NCBI GenBank assembly: GCA_963667725.2
Contig: CAXXHO010000003.1
Location: 288,001 to 352,000, forward strand
Direction: 5' to 3'
Length of the DNA stretch: 64,000 nucleotides
DNA from: Treponemataceae bacterium
GTDB lineage: Bacteria; Spirochaetota; Spirochaetia; Treponematales; Rectinemataceae
Positions 47,897 to 63,545 of this stretch are shown piece after piece. Both the position numbers and the translations under genes were made by a program. Within the stretch, counting starts at the first letter, position 1; each line of letters begins with the position of its first letter. A model generated the notes under the pieces. That model made no database searches, was not told the DNA's origin, and saw only the letters and a program-made list of their open reading frames with translations.

Positions 47897-48733
47897 TCAT
47901 ACAGCTTCTTTGAGTTCCCTTGCCGGGAACTTACTCCAATAAATAGTGTCTGGAGTTTCGTACTCCAGCGATTGATGGAATCGCTCACTGTTATAAAACC
48001 TAAGGTAGCGAGCAAGCCCATCTTTCAGCTCCGTCATAGTTCGGTAATCCTTGAGATAAATGTCCTCGTACTTCAAGGATCTCCAGAACCGTTCTACAAA
48101 GATATTGTCCAGCGCCCTGTTTACGCCATCCATGCTGATTTGTATTCCATGAGATTCCAGCACCGACACAAAGGCGTCAGAAGTAAACTGGCTTCCTTGA
48201 TCTGTGTTAAAAATGCCTGGTACTCCGTAATGGGCAATTGCTTCTTCCAGTGCCGATACACAAAATTGGGCATCCATGGTGTTAGAAACCCGCCAGGACA
48301 GAATCTTCCTGGAATACAGGTCAATTATCGTAACCAGATAGACGTAACCGCCAGAAAGCTTGATATAGGTTATGTCAGACGCCCACACCTGATTCGGTAG
48401 CCAAATATTCATCCCCCTAAGTAAATAGGGGTATTTCTTGGAACCCTTGGACGGTTTGGAAAACTGAAGTCCAGGATAGATCGCCCGTAATCCGGCTTTC
48501 TTCATAATCCTTCGAACTTGCTTTCGTGTAACGTCCAAATAGATCAGTTCCCTTGCTATTCTACGGTAACCGTAGAACGGTTTCTCTTTCAGCACCTCGA
48601 GGATAGCTTCCAGAATAGCCAAATCATGATCTTCCGGAGCTTCCTTAGGCTGGTAGTAGTAAGATGATCGAGCTATCCCGAGGATCGTGCATTGCTGCGC
48701 TATTGAGAGCTCGGGATGATCGGCTTCTACCAT
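47897..48733 (-). CDS. IS3 transposase OrfB (DDE)
   Basis: PNQVWASDITY, NTDQGSQF, DNIFVERFWRSLKYE. Confidence 0.93.
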   Translation of the reverse strand: MVEADHPELSIAQQCTILGIARSSYYYQPKEAPEDHDLAILEAILEVLKEKPFYGYRRIARELIYLDVTRKQVRRIMKKAGLRAIYPGLQFSKPSKGSKKYPYLLRGMNIWLPNQVWASDITYIKLSGGYVYLVTIIDLYSRKILSWRVSNTMDAQFCVSALEEAIAHYGVPGIFNTDQGSQFTSDAFVSVLESHGIQISMDGVNRALDNIFVERFWRSLKYEDIYLKDYRTMTELKDGLARYLRFYNSERFHQSLEYETPDTIYWSKFPARELKEAV

Positions 48734-49029
48734 TTCGGATCGGTCCCGTACAGTTGTTTGTATTTTTTTTTAAGGTAGTCGTTCTCCACTTGGAGCTGTC
48801 CTATCTGTTTGTACAGTTCATCCTTTTGCCTCGTGGCGTCTTCTGTTGTTTTATCCTTCCCTTCTTTCTCAAAGAGCGCCGATGCGTGCTCCGAAAGTTG
48901 CCTTTTCCAGAGCGCGATCATGTTCGGATGGACCGAGTAAGTAATCGCCAGTTCCTGCAGAGTCTTTTCGCCCTTCAGGGCTTCCAAGGCTACTTTGGCC
49001 TTGAATTCTTTGTCGTACCGCTTTCTCAT
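48727..49029 (-). CDS. IS3 transposase OrfA
   Basis: MRKRYDKEFKAKVALEA HTH; LYKQIGQL.VENDYLKKK. Confidence 0.92.
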   Translation of the reverse strand: MRKRYDKEFKAKVALEALKGEKTLQELAITYSVHPNMIALWKRQLSEHASALFEKEGKDKTTEDATRQKDELYKQIGQLQVENDYLKKKYKQLYGTDPKW

Positions 49030-49286: not shown

Positions 49287-49331
49287 GTGGAGAATAGGGG
49301 ATTCGAACCCCTGACCTATAGATTGCGAATC
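49287..49331 (-). mobile_element. 3' half of tRNA-Ala(CGC): att site of an integrated island extending to the right
   Basis: Reverse complement GA-TTCGCAA-TCTAT-AGGTC-AGGGG-TTCGAAT-CCCCT-ATTCTCC-AC: anticodon loop, T-arm and acceptor 3' strand present; 5' half absent. Confidence 0.85.
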
Positions 49332-49473
49332 AATGTTAGCATCTTCCCTAACTATCCTACAAACTCCCTATAGTCTACCTTATTTGTTGCACTAAAGCAA
49401 GATATGCTAAAGCTGATGCCTAGTATATCCCTATGATTCCATACAGGATCAGGCGTGCATCTTACAGTCCCTC

Positions 49474-49856: not shown

Positions 49857-51257
49857 ATGAAGAAACCAGGAACGATAATTCTTATAGCATTATTTCTTTC
49901 CTTAGCCATTGCCTGTTCACCGGTGATCAATACTATCGTCACTACTACGACAATCCCGACAACCACTACATCCTCTACAACTACGTCTACAACGACAATA
50001 CCCATCGCCACTACAACAACGACTTCATCTACAACAACAACAACGATTGTACCAAAATATACGGTGAGCTTTGAAACTAATGGTGGATCATTAGTAAACC
50101 CAATTGTGGAAAGCAGAATAACAGAAATTCCAGTATCTGCAAAAAGTGCATATGCTTTGGAAGGATGGTTTTCCAATTCTTCTTTTACATCAGCAAGCAA
50201 GATTAGTTTTCCCTATGTGCCTACATCTAGCATCACCATTTATGCAAAATGGATATCTGCGACTGAAGGGCTACAATTTGAAACCAGTGGTGATGGATAC
50301 AGTGTCTCAAAAGGAACAGCTAACACATCAGGTAGTATAACCATTCCCGAGTTCTGGTTGGGTAAAAGTGTCATTAGTATTGGAATAGAGGGCTTTAGGG
50401 ACAGTGTTGACTTGCTACAGATTAATATTCCCAATAGTGTCAAAACAATTAAAAATGGGGCTTTTAGAAATTGCTTAAGTCTTTCTACTATTACAATTCC
50501 TGATAGTGTTACTACAATAGAATCGGATACATTCTATAATAGTGGTTTGCATAGTATAACCGTCCCTAATGGCATAGTAACAATAACAGCTGTGACATTT
50601 GGTAGCTGTGATAAACTAACTGATGTAGTGTTACCAAGTAGTATAACTTCGATAGAAGATTGTGCTTTTACTTATTGTACTTCGTTGAAGTCCATCAATC
50701 TTCCAGAAGGATTAGCTTCAATCGGTAAGGGGGCTTTCTCGGTTTGCAGCAGCCTAAAGAATATTAATCTACCGAGTAGTCTAAAAAGTCTTGGTGAAAG
50801 CGCATTTTTTTCAACCGGGTTGACTGGTGAATTAATAATTCCAAAGGGTATTGGAATAATTGACATTGGTGCATTTAATATTAGTAGAGGAATTACTAAA
50901 GTAATAATACCAGAAGGAATTACTTCAATCGGTCGTTTTGCATTTAATGGATGTAATATTACTGAACTATCACTACCGAACAGCCTAACCTCCATTGGGA
51001 ACTCTGCATTTTCTGAAAGTTATATAAGTAGCCTTACTATTCCATCAAATGTGAATTTAATAGGAGCGTCTGCTTTTTCTGGATGTTTTGACCTAGCAAT
51101 TGTAAAAGCCGATCCAATAGTTCCACCCTTAACAAATGAAACACTTTTTGATTCATGTATTAAACTTACTACCATCAAAGTGCCGTCAGTGAGTGTTAAT
51201 GCTTACAAGACAAGCGATGGATGGAGTATATACTCAGATAAGGTTATATCTCAATGA
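49857..51257 (+). CDS. BspA-type leucine-rich-repeat surface lipoprotein with Thr-rich stalk and InlB B-repeat-like domain
   Basis: Lipobox LAIAC; poly-Thr; YTVSFETNGGS...GWF...YAKW; repeated IP.SV..I...AF..C..L. Confidence 0.9.
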   Translation: MKKPGTIILIALFLSLAIACSPVINTIVTTTTIPTTTTSSTTTSTTTIPIATTTTTSSTTTTTIVPKYTVSFETNGGSLVNPIVESRITEIPVSAKSAYALEGWFSNSSFTSASKISFPYVPTSSITIYAKWISATEGLQFETSGDGYSVSKGTANTSGSITIPEFWLGKSVISIGIEGFRDSVDLLQINIPNSVKTIKNGAFRNCLSLSTITIPDSVTTIESDTFYNSGLHSITVPNGIVTITAVTFGSCDKLTDVVLPSSITSIEDCAFTYCTSLKSINLPEGLASIGKGAFSVCSSLKNINLPSSLKSLGESAFFSTGLTGELIIPKGIGIIDIGAFNISRGITKVIIPEGITSIGRFAFNGCNITELSLPNSLTSIGNSAFSESYISSLTIPSNVNLIGASAFSGCFDLAIVKADPIVPPLTNETLFDSCIKLTTIKVPSVSVNAYKTSDGWSIYSDKVISQ

Positions 51258-52868: not shown

Positions 52869-53345
52869 AATCCACCGGCTAAGCCGGTGAGGCTTAAAAA
52901 GGCTATGCCGTGGAGTGCGAGATAGAATAAGGTACCCCTAAGGTAGCCCCCTGACAAAGGCAACCAAAAGAGTACCAAGTAGATTGGCAAAGCTTAGCCC
53001 ACACCAAGTGGGAGTGTAAGTATCACATAGTAATCGAACCAAAGTACAGAAAGAAAGTGCTCTATGGTAAGATACGAAAAAGGATAGGGGAACTACTACG
53101 AGAATTATGCAAATATAAAGGGATCGAAATACTAGAAGGGTATGCAATGTCCGATCATGTGCATCTGTGTTTGTCGGTACCACCGAAATATAGTATTTCA
53201 ATGGCGATTGGGTATTTGAAATGGAAAAGTGCAATCCGGGATACACCGGGAGGTATTAGGAACCAAAATAGGATTTACATATAAGAACTTCTGGAGTAGA
53301 GGATATTGTGTTAGTACCGTAGGTCTCAATGAAGAGCATCTGAAC
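52869..53345 (+). pseudogene. tnpA: IS200/IS605 TnpA (Y1 HUH) remnant with left-end hairpin
   Basis: Hairpin CACCGGCTAAGCCGGTG; SLAHTKWECKYHIV..PKYRKK, DHVH, frameshift, then FWSRGYCVSTVG; truncated. Confidence 0.85.
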
Positions 53346-53437
53346 TACAGGTGGACTGAATTTCAAATTGACCTATCACTAAATGCCAAATGTGTCTTGA
53401 TATATTAATGATCAATGGACTTAAGGAGAATTAGGAA

Positions 53438-53775: not shown

Positions 53776-54534
53776 ATGCCAGTTAAAAGTAATTCACTTA
53801 CTCATTTTACAGAGGAAATTGATACTCTTAGAAGTATTTTGGAAAATGGCTTTTTACCCTCATACTGTACTGAAGATTTTTCATATATTTTTGAGTCAAC
53901 ACCTCTAATACCTTCTGCACCAAGCATTCCAATGGTCTGCTTTTGTGATATACCAATTCATCTAATTAATGATCATATTGAACGGTATGGAAAGTATGGT
54001 TTAGGTCTCCAAAAATCTTGGGGAATAAAGAAACACTTGAATCCTGTTTCATATATCATTGCTGAATCAAGTTATACTAATAGTCTAATAATGTACGCTC
54101 AATTTTTTATGAAGGCTCTTGATATATTAGTCGGTAGTATTTCTTCAAAAGAAAAAATAGCATATCTAAAAGGGTTTGCATTAATATTATCATATACAAA
54201 GCCTTGTATAATTAAGGTTGATGGTGAAGATTTTGATGCATCACAAGAAAATGAATGGAGGTATATTCCATTCGACTTTACTAGCACACAAATATTCCCA
54301 TTTGATCTTGAAGAACCAATAGCGAAAGCTGCTGGAGAAAAAAGATTTCTAAAAGACTATCCACTACAATTTGAGCCTGATGATATTAAGTACATTTTCG
54401 TAAAAGAAGAATCCGATAGATTGCATGTGGTTAATATGATAAAGGAATTAAAATCAAGCAAGTATACCAATGACCAGCTAGCTATATTAACAAGTAAAAT
54501 ATTATCCTCGGAACAGATTATATATGATATGTAG
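53776..54534 (+). CDS. AbiGi-family abortive-infection protein
   Basis: LTHFT...L.SIL..GF...YC.E, PMVCFCDIP...I..H...YG.YG.GL.K.W, ENEWRY, L.F...DI.YI.V. Confidence 0.75.
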   Translation: MPVKSNSLTHFTEEIDTLRSILENGFLPSYCTEDFSYIFESTPLIPSAPSIPMVCFCDIPIHLINDHIERYGKYGLGLQKSWGIKKHLNPVSYIIAESSYTNSLIMYAQFFMKALDILVGSISSKEKIAYLKGFALILSYTKPCIIKVDGEDFDASQENEWRYIPFDFTSTQIFPFDLEEPIAKAAGEKRFLKDYPLQFEPDDIKYIFVKEESDRLHVVNMIKELKSSKYTNDQLAILTSKILSSEQIIYDM

Positions 54535-54757: not shown

Positions 54758-56398
54758 TTATACGTTAACCTTTATATCCTTTTCCCTATTCAGATTTTCC
54801 TTTGGCTGCTCCTTCTCCCTATTCCTCCATTTGTGTTGGTATTCCCTCTCCATCTCATATTGGTCATGCTGCCGCTTTTTAGCTCCAAAGGTTTTTGTGG
54901 CTTCACATATTGCTATCAGTTGATCTCTTGCTACTTCAGCTACAACTTTATAGGTTGTTGACCATTTACCCCGTTTGATCGTGTACCCCGCCTCTACTAT
55001 CCCTACCATCTCAAGTAGCTCAAGTTTTCGTTTAGCACTCTTATAGATCATCTGGTTCCATTGCTTTCCCCATTCGTTGATTGTTCTTTCAGTACCAAGA
55101 GTGAGGGAAGATATGATTATATCTGCATCAAGCCCTAAAGCTCTTGATCTAGAAATGTCACTATTAACCCTGATGCCAGAATTGGAGTGTAGGTTTGACC
55201 ATTCCTCCACGATTCCCCCAGAATAGGTTTGGTCAGGAATACACACCAGATTAGCCACATCATACACTGATGATTTCCAACCATCATACTTATGTACTAG
55301 CTTGATACCTGTCTCTTTAAAGTGATTGAGTACTGATCCATGGGATACCCCACTCTCTTCAGCTATTTGTCTGGTGGATAGACTTAAGCTATGTAGCTTT
55401 GCTGGTCCTGCCATTCTAAGGATGTTGAGGATACCAAGGATGATTTTTCTGAGAGTCCGAGGCATTTCTCTACAATGCTTGTAGTAATAGTAGGAGAGGG
55501 TGAGGTTGGTGTTGAAAGGGGTAGCCTGACTGTGAACCCATGTATAAGCCCTCTGATATTCATCATGAAATCTCTTTTGCCTATCCCCTTCATAGGTGAA
55601 GTACTTCAAATGATCCCTACTACCCCATCTCTCAAAGAGTAATTGAATCTCAGCTTCAGTCAGGTCAAGCCCAACGCCCCGCACCATGAAGGCAAATTCA
55701 GGTTCACTCCTTGAAATATATCCCTGTTTGTCCCCTTCTAGTATCCTTTTATATTTATCCCCGAACCCCCGTATCAGTACTTCAGGGGACTCTAAAGGAA
55801 GCAACTGTTTTGAGGGGGGAATAAGCAAGGTATCAGGTCTTGTGGCATTTTCAAGGTTAGAGAAGAAGGGATCAAGCTGAAGGTCATAGATGGAATCAAC
55901 TTCATAGATTCCTTTGAACCCATCAAGCATTGAGTAGGGGAGTCGTTTGCCTCCTTCTAGGATATAGGAGTCTGGTTCAATGGTGTGACCGGTATATTTG
56001 GCATCCCCAACATTTTCTCCGTTGTACGTAAGCTTGAAAGTCCTATGGAGGTTGGGGTTCTTTAGTCGTACATGGGCATGAATACCCCCATGAGCGGTAG
56101 ATGTTAGGGTAGTCTTCTTACAGATATTATCAAAGCTAGGGGATAGCTCTCTGGCTAATTTAAAGTCCTTGTAGGCTTCAAAGTCCAAGGTAAATAAGTT
56201 GTTGCTTCTTACTCCCGACACCCAAGCAATATTGATAGGATCGGGGATGTCGAAGAGTTTACAGATATCATCGTCTGTCTGAGGTTCAGCGAGATATAGG
56301 TTGTAATCTTTGTTGTTGTACTTCTCGCCTGCTGTAATTGGTACTAATTGAATGCCTGCATCATGGAATTGTAATGCGTTTTGTAATTGTGCTCTCAT
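54758..56398 (-). CDS. Bifunctional DNA primase/polymerase (Prim-Pol) replication protein with C-terminal HTH
   Basis: LVPI..G.K, NIA..SG....L..LDFE, T..GG.H.H, P.S; RSE.EF helical region; LSTRQIAEESGVSH HTH. Confidence 0.7.
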   Translation of the reverse strand: MRAQLQNALQFHDAGIQLVPITAGEKYNNKDYNLYLAEPQTDDDICKLFDIPDPINIAWVSGVRSNNLFTLDFEAYKDFKLARELSPSFDNICKKTTLTSTAHGGIHAHVRLKNPNLHRTFKLTYNGENVGDAKYTGHTIEPDSYILEGGKRLPYSMLDGFKGIYEVDSIYDLQLDPFFSNLENATRPDTLLIPPSKQLLPLESPEVLIRGFGDKYKRILEGDKQGYISRSEPEFAFMVRGVGLDLTEAEIQLLFERWGSRDHLKYFTYEGDRQKRFHDEYQRAYTWVHSQATPFNTNLTLSYYYYKHCREMPRTLRKIILGILNILRMAGPAKLHSLSLSTRQIAEESGVSHGSVLNHFKETGIKLVHKYDGWKSSVYDVANLVCIPDQTYSGGIVEEWSNLHSNSGIRVNSDISRSRALGLDADIIISSLTLGTERTINEWGKQWNQMIYKSAKRKLELLEMVGIVEAGYTIKRGKWSTTYKVVAEVARDQLIAICEATKTFGAKKRQHDQYEMEREYQHKWRNREKEQPKENLNREKDIKVNV

Positions 56399-56843: not shown

Positions 56844-57908
56844 TTATAAGTAGGGACGTGTAACAGTATTTCGCCAGCATTGAGGATCTGGTGCATAGAA
56901 ATCACCGTTTGAGTGTGCGAAGGCTACAGCGGGACACCCCCTACATTCAAAATGGAGAGGGCAATGTACGCATGCTTTGAAATTACTATATTGTCTATAG
57001 TACATTAATGCAGGGGAGGTAAAAATTTCTGCTACTGATTGTTCTGGTAGTTTTCCTATAAAGCTTTCAAATCTTCTGCATGCATAAACGCTGCCGTCTG
57101 GAAGGATTGTTAAGTTGCTTTTCCCAATATGGCACCCAGAAATTATCTGTTTTGCAGGATTATCCTTTATTTTATATTCCCCTTGCTCATATAAAAGCAA
57201 TTTCCATAAATTGTCTTTGTGTGATAACTTGGTTTTATTCCCATGCGAATATAATTCTTTAGATTCTCTTTGAATAGCTAAAAGGACATTCTTATATTGG
57301 ATAGGTGTAAAATCCTCTTTAGCTATTGTACTTAATGAAGGTACATATCGGGCAAATGAAAAAAGGTCTACACCTAGTTCAGAAACGAATCTATATGTTG
57401 GGATTAGGTCTTGTACATTTATTTTGCTCACAGTGAACATGACTATTGAACGTAGGCTAGAGCTAACAAGTTTTTTAATACCATCAACAGTGAAATTAAA
57501 ACTACCTGATCCTCGAATTAAGTCATGAGTATTTTCTAACCCATCAAGGCTCAATTGATAACTCTTTACACCAAGACTTAATAGCTGGTTAATGCAATTC
57601 ATTGTCAGGTAATTTGGATTTCCCATAATATGGCAAGGTATCTCTTTACTATGAAAGTAATTCAATAGTTCCCAGAAATCTTGACGTAGCAGTGGATCAC
57701 CACCAGTTATAAAGAAAACTGGGTAAGCATGCGCCCTCGAACAGAATTCGATGACTGAGTCAACTATCAATATACAATCATTAAGTGAAAGCTCTTTTTC
57801 AAGATCATGAGAGTATCGTAGACTATTAATTGAATAACAATGTTGACATTTTTGTTCGCACTTTGCTGTAATATGCCATTGGATAGCAAACCATGGTAAA
57901 CCATTCAT
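56844..57908 (-). CDS. Radical SAM/SPASM peptide maturase (resembles ACGX-system maturases)
   Basis: QWHIT..CEQKCQHCY, TGGDP, YQLS.DG, FARY.P, KD.LW; SPASM GC...LP.G.VYACRR...C..C.....CRGCPA...DPQCW. Start set to ATG 57908, 7 nt after the peptide stop. Confidence 0.9.
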   Translation of the reverse strand: MNGLPWFAIQWHITAKCEQKCQHCYSINSLRYSHDLEKELSLNDCILIVDSVIEFCSRAHAYPVFFITGGDPLLRQDFWELLNYFHSKEIPCHIMGNPNYLTMNCINQLLSLGVKSYQLSLDGLENTHDLIRGSGSFNFTVDGIKKLVSSSLRSIVMFTVSKINVQDLIPTYRFVSELGVDLFSFARYVPSLSTIAKEDFTPIQYKNVLLAIQRESKELYSHGNKTKLSHKDNLWKLLLYEQGEYKIKDNPAKQIISGCHIGKSNLTILPDGSVYACRRFESFIGKLPEQSVAEIFTSPALMYYRQYSNFKACVHCPLHFECRGCPAVAFAHSNGDFYAPDPQCWRNTVTRPYL

Positions 57909-57915
57909 TAATGCT

Positions 57916-58101
57916 TTAGTCGCCATCTCCACCACATTCACCATCACCATGACAATCAGAACCAATATCACTGCAATCAGTAGATGCAGAATTCGTTGTA
58001 GGGATTACTGATTCTTGTAGTTGCTGACTGGAAACTCTATTCCAATGAGCATATTGCATTTGAATCTTAGCGATCTTCTCATCTAAAGCTAAATCAGACA
58101 T
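57916..58101 (-). CDS. Putative RiPP precursor peptide (61 aa; Cys/Asp/Gly-repeat core)
   Basis: AGAGGAGG RBS; core DCSDIGS-DCHGDG-ECGGDGD; immediately upstream of the rSAM gene. Confidence 0.8.
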   Translation of the reverse strand: MSDLALDEKIAKIQMQYAHWNRVSSQQLQESVIPTTNSASTDCSDIGSDCHGDGECGGDGD

Positions 58102-58551
58102 AATTGGCCTCCTCTAAAGTTTTATACATTGAAGTCTGGATGAATACTTCGCAACAAATAAAATAGTCCAGCTCCCTTTTGTTTGCTAATAGTATACAAC
58201 TAATATTTAAAAATGCAACAACAATTGATACTATCTATTGCTTTTGTAAAAATGGGAAGATGTGTCATAAGGATACAATTTTATTGTGGTACCCTTTCGG
58301 GCATAAAAGTAAAGCAAAAGACTTGCATATTCTTTTAATTTATATTAAGTCCTTTCATGTTTGCAGCGAGAAAGATATTAAAGAAAAATTGGTATCGGCG
58401 ATAAGAAGTCCGTGTAAGTCTAATTTTCCCAAGTAATTCAAGCTTCACATAATATAAGGCAGTGATGATTCTTCAGAGGGTTGGAATCGATGCAATTGCC
58501 TCCATAAATATATGTTCCTTACTTATTAAAATTGAATAATGAGATTGTTCT

Positions 58552-60885
58552 TTATGCCACTTTTGGTATTGCCCCCAACAAGTAGAGATATTGTTGAAAT
58601 CCAGTGAAGGTTTTACCTATATCTTCTCCAAGGTCTGCCACTGCATCAGAAATAGAGTCATTGTACTTCAACCTAAGTAGGGATGTAAGTTTTTCAACCG
58701 CTAGTTCTTCAACTCCGACTGAGATGTAATGGCCTAAGACAAATTCAAGGAATCCCTTCTGTTTGGTAGAGAACCTATCAGACATAATTTTCTTTGCTTC
58801 TGAAGCCCTTTCCTCCCGTGTAAACGTAGGCATTGCATACGCAACAAAGGCGAGCACATCAAAGATATCACTCTTCTCAGCTTCAATAATCTTCTGCATT
58901 TCTTCAAGCTGTGTTTTCCCAAATCCATTCTCTGCAAGTCCTTCAAGCAGTTTTTTTCTTGTGATGGGGGAACTCCACAAATCTCGCAACTCAGCCTCAC
59001 TCTTGAAAAAGTCAGGTAGCTTTCCGAAAAGCACTTCCATGAACTGCTGAGCTGACATTGGAGTACCATCAGGATGCCAGAAAGTAGTACACATCATGTG
59101 CTGTATCGTTCGTTCCTTCCCATCTGCAAGCTTCACTTTTATTTTGGCTGGCCTCTCGACTGGAGGTTCAAGCGGTGGTTTTTGTTTTTTCTCAGGGATA
59201 GGAGTGTGTTCTTGTTTGGGGTCAGGCTCTACTGGTTCTCCATCCCAATCTTCATCATGGAAGTGTAGATGGGCTTTTACAAAGTCATGGATAGTAAAGT
59301 AGTCCTTGTTATCGTGAAGCCTCGTTCCTCTGCCAATTATCTGCTTGAACTCGATCATTGAGTTCACGGGGCGCATCAAGACAATGTTCCGAATGTTTCG
59401 AGCGTCTACTCCAGTTGAGAGTTTTTGAGAAGTTGTAAGGATGGTAGGAATAGTCTTTTCATTGTCTTGGAATTCACGGAGATGGGTATCCCCTATCTCA
59501 CCTTCATCTGAGGTAACTCTATGGCAATAATCAGGGGATGTACTAGTCTTCATCTGGTTTATCAAATCTCTGACTGCAAGGGCATGGGCTTGGGTTGCAC
59601 AGAATACAATTGTCTTTTCAGATTGACTGATCTGATCCATGAAGAGTTTTACCCTGACGGCCTCTCTCTCCCTGATCTCGATTATCTTATTAAACTCAGC
59701 CTCTGTGTACCTACGTCCTGTATCAATCTCTCCTTGGAGCACATCATCATCAGCGGTATAGACGTATTCATCAAGAGAAGTCGTATATTCCTTGACCCTG
59801 AAGGGAGTGAGGAAGCCATCGTTGATACCTTCTTTAAGAGAGTATGTATAGACTGGCTCTCCAAAGTAAGCGTAGGTATCTATGTTTTCAGTTCGCTTCG
59901 GGGTTGCAGTAAGCCCAAGTTGTACAGCAGGGGAGAAGTATTCAAGGATTTCTCGCCATGTGCTCTCATCATTCGCGCCACCTCTATGACACTCATCTAT
60001 AACAATGAAATCAAAAAAGTCTTTGGGGTAGTTTCCAAAGTAGGGGGAGGGTTTTCCATTTACAGGTTGCCCACTCATGAACGTCTGGAAGATTGTAAAG
60101 AAGATGCTACCGTTTGTAGGTACTCTTTGCCTAAGCTTTATTTCTGATGGTTTAATTCTTATCATCGCATCATCAGCAAAAGCGTTAAATGAAGAGAAAT
60201 CATTATAGGCTTGGCTAGCTAAGTTGTTTCTATCCGCTAGGAATAGGATTCGCGGGCGACGTGTTGGCTGTCCACTCAGATTCCACCAAGATTTGAATAA
60301 CTTCCATGCTATTTGAAAAGCGATAGCAGTCTTCCCTGTACCAGTAGCAAGGGTAAGCAGAATGCGTTTTTCGTTTTTTGCAATCTTCTCAAGCACTCTG
60401 TTTACTGCTGTTTCTTGGTAGTAGCGAATATCCCAGGTACCACCTTTGTCAGGGAATGCAGTTTCGGTGAATCTATTACGCCATTCATTTACCTGCTCAA
60501 AAGTTCGATTCCAAAGCTCTTCCGGTGTTGGAAACTTAGGCACATCCTCTTCTTTTCCAGTGAGCATATCAATTGCATAGATGCCCCTACCGTTTGTTGA
60601 ATATGTAAACCTTATAGATAGTTTTGAGGCATAGTTCTTAGCTTGTCCAACTCCTTCAGAGACTTCTTGGCCATACGCTTTTGCTTCAATGGTGGCAAGC
60701 CGAATATTCTTATACACGAGGACATAGTCAGCAGTAAGAGGCTTTCCTCTTCTTCCTTGACTGCCTTCGAGTCTGCCAGGATAGATGGGGTATTCTCGTC
60801 TTATTTGGCTATTCTCAACTGTTCCCCATCCAGATAAAGCGAGGGAAGGATCGATATACTCAGCACGTGTTTCGGCTTCATTCAT
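58552..60885 (-). CDS. hsdR: Type I restriction enzyme R subunit (EcoEI/EcoAI-like)
   Basis: ADY...IEAK nuclease, LATGTGKT, DECH, GLTATP, QIIGRGTR. Confidence 0.93.
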   Translation of the reverse strand: MNEAETRAEYIDPSLALSGWGTVENSQIRREYPIYPGRLEGSQGRRGKPLTADYVLVYKNIRLATIEAKAYGQEVSEGVGQAKNYASKLSIRFTYSTNGRGIYAIDMLTGKEEDVPKFPTPEELWNRTFEQVNEWRNRFTETAFPDKGGTWDIRYYQETAVNRVLEKIAKNEKRILLTLATGTGKTAIAFQIAWKLFKSWWNLSGQPTRRPRILFLADRNNLASQAYNDFSSFNAFADDAMIRIKPSEIKLRQRVPTNGSIFFTIFQTFMSGQPVNGKPSPYFGNYPKDFFDFIVIDECHRGGANDESTWREILEYFSPAVQLGLTATPKRTENIDTYAYFGEPVYTYSLKEGINDGFLTPFRVKEYTTSLDEYVYTADDDVLQGEIDTGRRYTEAEFNKIIEIREREAVRVKLFMDQISQSEKTIVFCATQAHALAVRDLINQMKTSTSPDYCHRVTSDEGEIGDTHLREFQDNEKTIPTILTTSQKLSTGVDARNIRNIVLMRPVNSMIEFKQIIGRGTRLHDNKDYFTIHDFVKAHLHFHDEDWDGEPVEPDPKQEHTPIPEKKQKPPLEPPVERPAKIKVKLADGKERTIQHMMCTTFWHPDGTPMSAQQFMEVLFGKLPDFFKSEAELRDLWSSPITRKKLLEGLAENGFGKTQLEEMQKIIEAEKSDIFDVLAFVAYAMPTFTREERASEAKKIMSDRFSTKQKGFLEFVLGHYISVGVEELAVEKLTSLLRLKYNDSISDAVADLGEDIGKTFTGFQQYLYLLGAIPKVA

Positions 60886-60894
60886 AGGATATCC

Positions 60895-62046
60895 TTATAG
60901 GTTCCCTGTGAAGGCTTCATTCAATATAGATTTCTTGAGAGCTTCGAGTTCAATTATCTTCCGCTTGATAACCGATTCAAGTAATGTAATTTCATCTTTT
61001 AGCATATTCAGTTCATGGACTATTTCCTGTTGCTTTTGTAGTGGTGGTAGATGGATGGGGAAGTTACGAAGATATCCTAATCCTACAAACTTTTGCGTTG
61101 AACCTCTAGCATCATTCATCATCTTAGTAATAACTGCACTAGAAGAAAGGTAATATTGTAAAAACTCACTACTCTGAGAACTAGGTATTTTAAAAAGTGC
61201 AACATTTTTAATTGCAAAATTTGGCTCAACTGCAACCAATGTTGGATTTCCAATCGTTCCGATCATTGCAAAAAGTACATCACCCCTGTCTACAGCACTT
61301 CTTTTATTAATTTGAAGAAAGTCTTCCTCGCTAATTAAGCTAACATCATCAAAACTCAATCCATTCGTTTTTAAATTTTTGGAAGTTATAAGAGGATAGC
61401 CAGTCTTATGGTACTTAGGAGAATCATGTGTTCCATCCCTAACATCATAATATTCTCCGAGAGTTCCATCATTCCAGTCATTGCTTTGTCTTGTAAAAAT
61501 TAAATGTAAATAGCTTTCAAATAAATTATGAGCATTTTTTAGATTCTTCTCTGCATTTGCCTTGGCTATGGCTATTCCCTCAAATGCTTCATCGAGGATT
61601 TTAACAATGCGTTGTTGCTCTGACATCGGAGGGACAAATATCTCAAATCCTAAAAGGGAGTTGACGTTAGCTCTTGGCATCCGAGCACCTGTAGAGGTCG
61701 AACTAATTTTAGCTACTGTCGAGTAAGACATAAGCCAGTATTGTAAAAATGAACGTGTTATATTCGGTTTTGGTTTTAGTGGCATTATTTCTGTTGAGCA
61801 ATGACCATTAAAATCTGGTGCATATACTTTATTTAGATAGGGGCGTAATCTCCCATATAATAGATGTTCGGTTGAAAATGAAAATGTAGAACTCTTTACA
61901 TCCTGAGGTAGTTTGGAACCAATAAACCTTCCTGTATTAGATTCGATATCTTCCAACCCTACATATGGTAATCCTTTGAAAATCTTTTGTATTTTTTCTA
62001 TAATACATACATCTGCGATTTTCATTTTTTCCCATACACTTTTCAC
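60895..62046 (-). CDS. hsdS: Type I R-M specificity subunit
   Basis: Two TRDs, each followed by PP..(E/K)Q..IV..L conserved helices; ends AFTGNL. Confidence 0.92.
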   Translation of the reverse strand: MKSVWEKMKIADVCIIEKIQKIFKGLPYVGLEDIESNTGRFIGSKLPQDVKSSTFSFSTEHLLYGRLRPYLNKVYAPDFNGHCSTEIMPLKPKPNITRSFLQYWLMSYSTVAKISSTSTGARMPRANVNSLLGFEIFVPPMSEQQRIVKILDEAFEGIAIAKANAEKNLKNAHNLFESYLHLIFTRQSNDWNDGTLGEYYDVRDGTHDSPKYHKTGYPLITSKNLKTNGLSFDDVSLISEEDFLQINKRSAVDRGDVLFAMIGTIGNPTLVAVEPNFAIKNVALFKIPSSQSSEFLQYYLSSSAVITKMMNDARGSTQKFVGLGYLRNFPIHLPPLQKQQEIVHELNMLKDEITLLESVIKRKIIELEALKKSILNEAFTGNL

Positions 62047-63545
62047 AACAAACCCCTAATCTTCTCTAATACCCTTGCACTCTCATCGTCCAACCTGACT
62101 ATCTCATCAAGTATATCTTTAGGACTTCGATGAAATACTTCTTCATTTCCATTAGGATTCTTTACAGAAAGATCAAAGGAGATCTTATCCACATCACCAA
62201 TTTTGATACTCCAAGACTTTGGAGAATCTTCAAACTTCTTCGATAGCTTCACAAAGTCTGCAAGGTCTTCATCATTGAGTGGGTTTGTCTTGCCAAGAGT
62301 TCTGCCGGGATCAAGCTGGTAATACCATATCTTCCGGGTAGGTTCTCCCTTTTGAAAGAAGAGAATGACCGTCTTTACTCCAGCCCCTTGGAATGTTCCT
62401 GAAGGGCAATCGAGGATAGCTGTGAGGTTGCAGCTCTCAAGAAGCAGTTTCCGCAGGGAAGTCGAAGCATTGTCGGAGTTGGATAGGAATGTATTCTTAA
62501 TCACAATCCCTGCTCGTCCCCCTGCTTTAAGCATCTTTATAAAGTGCTGAAGGAAAAGAAATGCAGTCTCTCCTGTACGGATAGGGAAGTTCTGTTGGAC
62601 TTCGGGGCGTTCACTCCCCCCAAAAGGAGGATTTGCTAGGCATATATCTACTCTATCTTTCTCCTGTATGTCAGATAGGTTTTCTGTAAGTGTATTCGTG
62701 TGGATGATATTAGGTGCATCAATGCCATGAAGAATCATGTTCATTATAGCGATGACGTATGCGAGAGATTTTTTCTCCTTCCCGATGAAGGTTTTTTCTT
62801 GCAGTATCTTTACATCTTTGGTGGTAAGCTCTTTCGATTCTTTCATGTAGTTGAAAGACTCACAGAGGAATCCGGCTGAACCTACAGCCCCGTCGTATAC
62901 CTTCTCCCCTATCTGAGGCTTTACAACTTGTATCATGGCTCGGATTAACGGACGAGGAGTGTAGTACTCTCCCCCATTCCTTCCTGCATTGCCCATGTTC
63001 TTAATCTTGGCTTCATAGAGATGGGAGAGTTCAAACTTGTCAGATTGAGATCTGAACTTCAACTCATCGATATGGTCGAGGATGTCCCTCAAACTATAAC
63101 CCGACTGGATCTTGTTCTTGATCTCTCCAAAGATTTCACCAATCTTGTACTCGATTGTATTAGACCCTGAAGCTCTGCCCTTGAAGCCGTGAAGGTATGG
63201 AAACAGCTTCTGGTTCACAAAACCTATTAGGTCATCCCCAACCATCGCCTTGTTGTGGTCGAGCTTCCCATCTTTACCCTTTGGAGCTGCCCATGACTCC
63301 CATCGGTAAGGTTTTTCTAGGATATAGGAGTATATGCGGCCTTCTAGTTTAGCTTCAGTAGCTCTATCTTCCTCTAAGCCATCGAGATATTTGAGGAAGA
63401 GTAGCCATGAGGTTTGCTCAGTGTAATCAAGTTCGGTAGTACAACCAGCTTCTTTATGGAGGATGTCATCGATGTTCTTGAAGGCTTGCTCAAAGTTGTT
63501 TACTGGAACTATTTTGTTATCTGAGTTAGCTTTAGTCCTCGCCAT
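62043..63545 (-). CDS. hsdM: Type I R-M N6-adenine methyltransferase
   Basis: GEYYTPR, YDGAVGSAGFL, NPPF. Confidence 0.94.
   Translation of the reverse strand: MARTKANSDNKIVPVNNFEQAFKNIDDILHKEAGCTTELDYTEQTSWLLFLKYLDGLEEDRATEAKLEGRIYSYILEKPYRWESWAAPKGKDGKLDHNKAMVGDDLIGFVNQKLFPYLHGFKGRASGSNTIEYKIGEIFGEIKNKIQSGYSLRDILDHIDELKFRSQSDKFELSHLYEAKIKNMGNAGRNGGEYYTPRPLIRAMIQVVKPQIGEKVYDGAVGSAGFLCESFNYMKESKELTTKDVKILQEKTFIGKEKKSLAYVIAIMNMILHGIDAPNIIHTNTLTENLSDIQEKDRVDICLANPPFGGSERPEVQQNFPIRTGETAFLFLQHFIKMLKAGGRAGIVIKNTFLSNSDNASTSLRKLLLESCNLTAILDCPSGTFQGAGVKTVILFFQKGEPTRKIWYYQLDPGRTLGKTNPLNDEDLADFVKLSKKFEDSPKSWSIKIGDVDKISFDLSVKNPNGNEEVFHRSPKDILDEIVRLDDESARVLEKIRGLL

Follow-up and report, generated by a model that had tools for sequence, protein, structure and literature searches.

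A 61-residue peptide and a radical SAM/SPASM enzyme, encoded side by side in the 64,000-nucleotide stretch of DNA analysed here (the window), appear to form a self-contained two-gene RiPP cassette, and sequence comparisons support their being a genuine precursor-maturase pair. The peptide appears to found a new precursor family (labelled CHGD here) and the enzyme a clade of its own inside a catalogued, chemically unsolved group, the ACGX-like enzymes; the chemistry of the pair is most likely SbtM-like. Both genes are single-copy in the genome. The features of the cassette and its surroundings are collected in Table 1.

Table 1. Features of the cassette and of the island around it (positions in the window).
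Feature	Position	Strand	Basis or remark
tRNA-Ala(CGC), left island end	49287..49360	-	43-bp repeat
AbiGi-family gene, island cargo outside the cassette	53776..54534	+	domain and defence-model match
Primase/polymerase-like gene, island backbone or cargo	54758..56398	-	phrog_19930
RRE-less radical SAM/SPASM maturase of 354 aa	56844..57908	-	domain matches, model, alignment
Precursor gene, 61 aa	57916..58101	-	ORF list; unnamed 'CHGD' family
Core with three Cys	57919..57978	-	C-H-G-D and C-x-G-D-G invariant
Leader motif YAHWN	58039..58053	-	W20 invariant in the peptide alignment
RBS AGGAGG of the precursor gene	58108..58113	-	ends 6 nt 5' of the ATG
Type I R-M R, S and M genes, island cargo	58552..63545	-	end 450 nt before the peptide

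The preliminary description of this DNA reported a peptide gene with a strong ribosome-binding site and a three-Cys core, followed 7 nt downstream by the enzyme gene; the reading frame, the AGGAGG and the gap from the peptide stop to the enzyme ATG were all found as described. The ATG at 57908 is the likeliest start of the enzyme; other in-frame ATGs fall within the peptide gene, and the gene as called in the database (P0001) is 14 aa longer. The cassette stands about 450 nt from its neighbour on each side, and a promoter and terminator scan returned 10 promoter sites versus 8.6 expected and no terminator. At CHGD loci, where 38 of 127 ORFs were scanned, genes for proteases, exporters or RREs are not recurrent neighbours of the cassette; the earlier remark had been that neither a protease nor an exporter is adjacent.

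The peptide matched no family in Pfam or NCBIfam, and no entry of the ESM Atlas at 0.8 or above. Four database homologs were recovered (E 1e-13 to 1e-6) with cores near-identical to that of the query, and over an 11-codon core nine loci, five of them taken from a pattern search on the same core motif, differed from the query at 49 synonymous and 9 non-synonymous codons. The homologs and the synonymous excess argue that the reading frame is not a chance one. Two of the four database peptides lie on contigs equal in length to those of two close database homologs of the enzyme (46-53% identical), a coincidence suggestive of linkage. Altogether 12 homologous peptides carry [YH]W in the leader and CHGDxxCxGDG at the C-terminus. 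A CHGD-type peptide adjoins the enzyme at eight loci, upstream in six and downstream in two. Four of these loci (L003, L004, L032 and L108) were reached via the enzyme alone; the other four (L168, L176, L177 and L178) were picked by the core pattern, so that motif conservation there is partly built in, and L176 was later re-found via the enzyme alone. The pattern matched 12 times in genomes, seven times beside the enzyme and once in a protein fusion; the other four matches were dropped, as no enzyme lay within the locus.

Ten columns are invariant across the 13 aligned peptides: W20, C43, C50, H51, G52, D53, C56, G58, D59 and G60. This conservation bears out part of the pattern first read from the single sequence, in which Asp or Glu preceded every Cys and CxD/CxxD rings were proposed. 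The query does carry an acidic residue before each Cys, but in the family it precedes the second Cys in 5/13 peptides and the third in 7/13, the preceding residue being D, E, S, Q or G, and not always Gly. An acidic residue two positions past the first Cys is found in five of the 13. Both C-x-G-D units are invariant, with Asp at +3 of each of the last two Cys (D53 and D59) in 13/13 peptides. Comparison of the short ORFs beside homologous enzymes therefore upheld the C-x-G-D units of the suggested (D/E)C..DG motif and not its leading acidic residue. Counted over all positions, 37 of the 52 Cys of CHGD peptides have D/E at +2 to +4. The leader motif YAHWN is a probable enzyme-docking motif: [YH]W occurs in 13/13 CHGD peptides versus 0/68 ACGX peptides, and the broader [YFH]W in all 13 CHGD peptides and, among the 32 precursors of the clade that are neither ACGX nor CHGD, in 22. 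By inspection, the peptide has no hydrophobic signal stretch.

Several variants of this arrangement were observed. At L170:3936-4520, and in P0272 and P0273, a CHGD core is fused C-terminally to a domain of ~130 aa (precomputed Pfam PF27765), which we take to resemble glycine-rich-domain proteins; the L170 assembly has no close enzyme homolog (best E 8.5e-26). At L176:7587-7778 (minus strand), an additional precursor-like ORF separates the CHGD peptide from the enzyme; its leader is the same, its core different. At L178:8048-8620 the enzyme gene ends after 190 aa beside an intact CHGD peptide, reflecting either decay or misassembly.

Precursors of the wider clade were sought at the 162 loci that had 300 nt or more of upstream sequence, and a heuristic picked out a small Cys-rich ORF at 130 of them. 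Including the query and the four database peptides, there were 113 distinct cores, namely 68 ACGX, 13 CHGD and 32 others, the last including three ACGX-like peptides. Acidic residues at +2 to +4 follow 219 of 344 Cys in the ACGX peptides (D at +4 for 167), and 22 of 184 Cys in the other precursors. Because 18 of these 32 have none at all at those positions, the wider clade does not seem to need an acidic acceptor. A Cys placed between small residues is a feature common to the other precursors of the clade. TIGR04341 matched neither the query peptide nor six homologs, while an annotated AcgA control scored 52 bits; together with the enzyme score given below, this agrees with the earlier reading of an ACGX-related maturase whose peptide has no ACGX repeats.

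Some members of the clade are organised differently. In P0144 an aromatic-W leader and a Cys-rich core are fused to the enzyme C-terminus, an arrangement that is natural or an assembly artefact and that, unless it is the latter, supports the peptide as the enzyme's substrate. P0146, P0163 and ~15 other representatives have C-terminal extensions of ~100-140 aa, which may be a built-in docking module; that of P0146 contains a leader-like RYALW motif. Neighbours of ACGX-type loci (e.g. L034, L053, L063 and L137) include an HxlR regulator (46 loci), a PNPOx-ferredoxin fusion (41), a zinc-type dehydrogenase (28) and a macro domain (17), whose recurrence suggests a stress or redox setting for those loci. 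Of the 165 loci in the wider set, 29 have a gene for a TehB-like methyltransferase nearby, two archaeal CHGD loci among them; the query locus has none. A search mainly of the open literature found no paper on the chemistry of an ACGX-like enzyme.

The enzyme comprises Radical_SAM and SPASM domains, with CxxxCxxC at residues 17, 21 and 24 and seven invariant SPASM Cys (259, 277, 313, 316, 322, 325 and 344). In the predicted structure (pLDDT 88.6) the first barrel strand spans residues 6-14 and therefore leaves no space for an N-terminal RRE, in line with what had been read from the sequence. Ranthipeptide systems typically have an RRE, either as part of the enzyme or encoded by a separate PqqD-like gene; no such separate gene was found among the neighbours of the cassette. 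The profile search suggested earlier gave TIGR04340 (ACGX) as the best NCBIfam match, at 337.6 bits and so under its 400-bit cut-off. SbtM (TIGR04082) scored 182.8 bits versus a cut-off of 350, with profile positions 199-515 only matched, and StsB, PapB and SkfB scored 76, 62 and 51 bits. Nine residues (Q10, W11, G96, Q118, M157, R187, Y205, K231 and R278) do not vary across 18 CHGD-clade, 9 ACGX and 6 SbtM rows and occur in at most one of seven ranthipeptide rows. Since several of them (Q10, W11, Q118, M157 and R187) sit on barrel strands of the model, the residues in common with SbtM would be predicted to line the active site. The enzyme is 29-31% identical to SbtM and 16-22% identical to sampled PapB/QhpD/SCIFF-family proteins. 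About 30 database enzymes are 46-53% identical to it; below them, at 40-47%, comes a large group in which the ACGX label is frequent. Matches to solved structures (SkfB, PqqE, anSME and SuiB) are all distant, with identities no higher than 19%, and favour no one chemistry over another; SkfB is the top but weak match, both by sequence and by Foldseek E-value, and anSME aligns with a TM of 0.74-0.75.

In a 38-protein tree, SbtM clusters with the CHGD and ACGX enzymes at a support of 99/96, CHGD enzymes form their own clade (95/95), and SCIFF, PapB and QhpD enzymes fall on a separate branch (100/100); a quick tree of 92 rows gave the same grouping. AU tests, run on 26 rows, rejected three other arrangements: the group joined to the ranthipeptide enzymes (p=0.006), the group placed with heme/MftC enzymes while SbtM stays outside (p=0.004), and a clade made up of CHGD and ACGX enzymes only (p=4e-5). 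In these trees the SbtM branch is long (1.7-1.9, at ~30% identity), and the PapB family is one row, from the single above-cut-off protein found. The QhpD sequences came from plasmid records, five genomes searched having yielded none, and sactipeptide synthases were compared by profile scores only. SbtM genes above cut-off occur in 70 of 401 genomes. When the SbtM catalytic domain was itself scored, the next-best family was ACGX (158.5 bits) and the one following reached 81, and in a plasmid search with this domain the best E-values belonged to ACGX-type genes. Among 45 distant representatives scanned (of 150 listed), ACGX ranked first in all and SbtM second in 44, the single exception being a two-domain fusion. 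As judged by profile, tree and common residues, SbtM is the nearest characterised enzyme.

The SbtM/SbtA pair is reportedly the thio(seleno)oxazole system of Lewis et al. 2021. SPASM enzymes readily change chemistry, and ~30% identity, the long SbtM branch, the lack of the SbtM N-terminal domain and of SbtA-type substrate features, a residue before Cys that is not always Gly, and Asp residues placed as an acceptor would be (invariant at +3 here, frequent at +4 in ACGX peptides) all count against extending SbtM chemistry to the present pair. We nevertheless think it probable, though well short of certain, that the product is a thiooxazole peptide as for SbtM, with the two invariant C-x-G-D Cys as the likeliest targets. 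The enzyme would engage the precursor without an RRE, probably via the [YH]W leader helix; its auxiliary 4Fe-4S cluster, with only three protein Cys ligands, would hold the thiol of a core Cys, a ligation suggested by the count of seven SPASM Cys and by the model for SbtM. An adenosyl radical would abstract H from the Cys beta-carbon to give a thioaldehyde, the preceding backbone carbonyl would trap it, and a second SAM-dependent oxidation would yield a 5-thiooxazole, with a change of -4 Da per Cys. In the available parts of PMC9204691, SbtM is described as taking H from Cys C-beta via a thioaldehyde intermediate, with a loss of 4 Da, a peak at 304 nm and a product that still reacts with iodoacetamide; the portions available of PMC11002830 and PMC13638132 give a consistent account.

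The preliminary description favoured ranthipeptide-type Cys-Asp thioethers. With the first Cys dropped from that proposal, the sulfur of each remaining Cys would be linked to the beta-carbon of the +3 Asp in two C-x-G-D rings. We regard this as unlikely, although it stays a rival because the two units are invariant. Acidic residues also follow many CHGD and ACGX Cys (37/52 and 219/344), the seven-Cys SPASM arrangement occurs in thioether enzymes too, and PapB forms diverse ring sizes, according to the accessible part of PMC11002830; the PapB Cx3D spacing is, as had been stated, absent from this peptide. The tree and the AU test point the other way, as do barrel residues that are not of ranthipeptide type, a pairwise identity of 22% to the PapB family, and the scarcity of acidic residues after the Cys of the clade's other precursors (22/184). 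The invariant Asp could instead be a metal ligand, and 4 of the 12 homologs came from a pattern requiring these very Asp.

A different Cys-centred reaction, either a sactionine (S to alpha-carbon) or a product stopping at the thioaldehyde level (formylglycine, enethiol or thiooxazoline), would need no acidic acceptor and would fit Gly/Ser-rich cores. The top structural matches include anSME and SkfB, and Cys thioaldehydes have several fates in the portion of PMC13638132 available. The sactipeptide profiles StsB and SkfB, however, score far under SbtM, and the structural matches, being so distant, do not discriminate; we consider such an outcome quite improbable.

If the thiooxazole reading holds, the heterocycles together with the invariant His and Asp could form a metal-binding (copper-type) tail, a proposal that we find plausible without favouring it. 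It rests on the His/Asp/Cys core and on analogy with bufferins rather than on gene context. Bufferins, according to the available text of PMC11626156, contain this thiooxazole too; they likewise undergo alkylation and are tight binders of both Cu(I) and Cu(II). Among the neighbours of 165 loci no copper gene recurs, one cupredoxin being present near L168. As there is neither a protease or exporter nor a visible signal stretch, the product is likely intracellular.

The surroundings had also prompted the idea that the pair acts against phages. The island does carry a type I R-M system, AbiGi and Hachiman HamAB, and R-M, methylase or GIY-YIG genes lie within ~3.5 kb at three of the seven homologous loci inspected (L003, L004 and L032), which is as expected of variable regions. 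With 38 of 127 ORFs scanned, the remaining four loci have no such neighbour among annotated genes. The cassette stands apart from both flanking genes by ~450 nt, the peptide pattern had 0 matches in viral contigs, and redox- or stress-type genes, together with a methyltransferase, predominate among the recurrent neighbours of the wider clade. Against PADLOC models the only overlap was a generic radical SAM one with viperin (45 bits, residues 9-166). With the defence genes being island cargo and homologous cassettes sitting in varied neighbourhoods, a specific anti-phage role found no support, and we judge an anti-phage element, whatever its chemistry, to be very unlikely.

The mobile island itself was confirmed. 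It spans ~27 kb at a GC of 0.36 versus 0.56 for the contig and starts at a tRNA-Ala gene, 43 bp of which recur identically past the window (G000:C3:364344-364386) beside a phage-type integrase. As described, the pair lies between the primase/polymerase-like gene and the type I R-M genes, near the AbiGi gene; the first of these matches phrog_19930 at E 1.3e-7 over residues 7-114 only and lies 445 nt past the enzyme stop. Beyond the window, G000:C3:352272-361718 (L189) encodes Hachiman HamAB, a protein with a weak PDC-M36A match and three proteins without a named family. Positions 47897-49029, 49857-51257 and 53057-53408 hold IS3-like and IS200-like candidates and a BspA-type LRR protein; we take these to include an IS3-like transposase pair just outside the tRNA-Ala and an IS200-like fragment inside the island. 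Since the island is tRNA-bounded and low in GC, and 40 related genomes contained no close homolog of the enzyme (best SbtM-profile E 1e-16 versus 2.5e-53 here), horizontal acquisition is well supported.

Elsewhere the cassette is sparsely distributed. In the host phylum the enzyme profile matched 12 of 380 other genomes, nine of which were inspected and contained no CHGD-type peptide. CHGD-type loci include ones from Patescibacteria, Saccharibacteria, Nanoarchaeota and Woesearchaeota, among others, and four of the genomes measure 0.7-1.4 Mb. The enzyme is rare in those phyla (3/401 and 17/401 genomes at E 1e-50, centre genomes counted). A single-protein locus search of genomes returned only 2 distant loci, and viral contigs contained 5 distant enzyme loci. 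No paper on radical SAM SPASM RiPPs in Patescibacteria was found in a search of mainly open literature.

ACGX-like enzymes are widespread, with SbtM as their sole characterised relative. To our knowledge, and according to reviews, the SbtM product has no known function. The short, single-core, selenium-free cassette thus offers a two-gene test case whose outcome would inform the whole group. More tentatively, the group as a whole, which spans gut anaerobes and tiny-genome bacteria and archaea, could consist of minimal RRE-free thiooxazole synthases, an O2-independent cytoplasmic counterpart of the bufferin Cu-binding peptides, in the present case with an acidic His/Asp core. Given the CHGD core on a larger protein domain noted above, the modification could then occur on proteins as well. 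If so, a 354-residue RRE-free, O2-independent installer of metal-binding heterocycles would be a useful tool for peptide engineering; Cys-Asp rings would instead mean that ranthionine chemistry had arisen independently in a neighbour of SbtM.

Taken together, these comparisons place the pair outside the ACGX, SbtM and ranthipeptide families as each is defined. The ACGX system (TIGR04340 AcgM with TIGR04341 AcgA) is catalogued in silico. Like it, the cassette combines a compact RRE-less rSAM/SPASM enzyme, 37-43% identical and with the same invariant residues, with a short Cys/Gly-rich peptide beside it. Unlike it, the enzyme scores 338 versus 400 bits and belongs to a separate CHGD clade, and the peptide has the [YH]W leader that ACGX peptides lack, neither ACGX repeats nor a TIGR04341 match; with the exclusive CHGD+ACGX clade rejected, membership was set aside. 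PapB (NF047865), QhpD/PeaB and SCIFF CteB/ScfB (TIGR03974) have the rSAM/SPASM fold, seven SPASM Cys and substrates in which Asp follows Cys. The present enzyme differs from them in its 16-22% identity, separate clade, lack of an RRE and of Cx3D spacing in its substrate, and in an Arg after the auxiliary Cys where ranthipeptide synthases have His. Ranthipeptide membership was rejected on the separate 100/100 branch, a PapB profile score of 61.5 bits and the missing RRE. CrpC, a methanogen thioether enzyme, was likewise discarded as belonging to another family, with an RRE, as far as the available part of PMC13692751 describes it. Bufferins and other thiooxazole metallophores are made by MNIO (DUF692) enzymes, which are unrelated to this enzyme; the precursors of these metallophores carry Sec signal peptides and their site of action is the periplasm, in the text available of PMC12452194, and the CHGD peptide has no visible signal stretch.

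SbtM has an N-terminal domain of ~190 aa that this enzyme lacks, and SbtA has a signal-like N-terminus, selenocysteine and S-G-U/C-G-G motifs, none of which occurs in the CHGD precursor, whose core is acidic with an invariant His. Membership in the SbtM/SbtA family was rejected on these grounds and on a score of 183 versus 350 bits. At the SbtM loci L298, L305 and L309, an apparent second, Cys-type S-G-C-G-G precursor-like ORF was seen besides the selenocysteine one. What the CHGD pair and SbtM/SbtA have in common are the nine catalytic-domain residues listed above, as would fit a similar way of working, and a substrate Cys set in a context of small residues.
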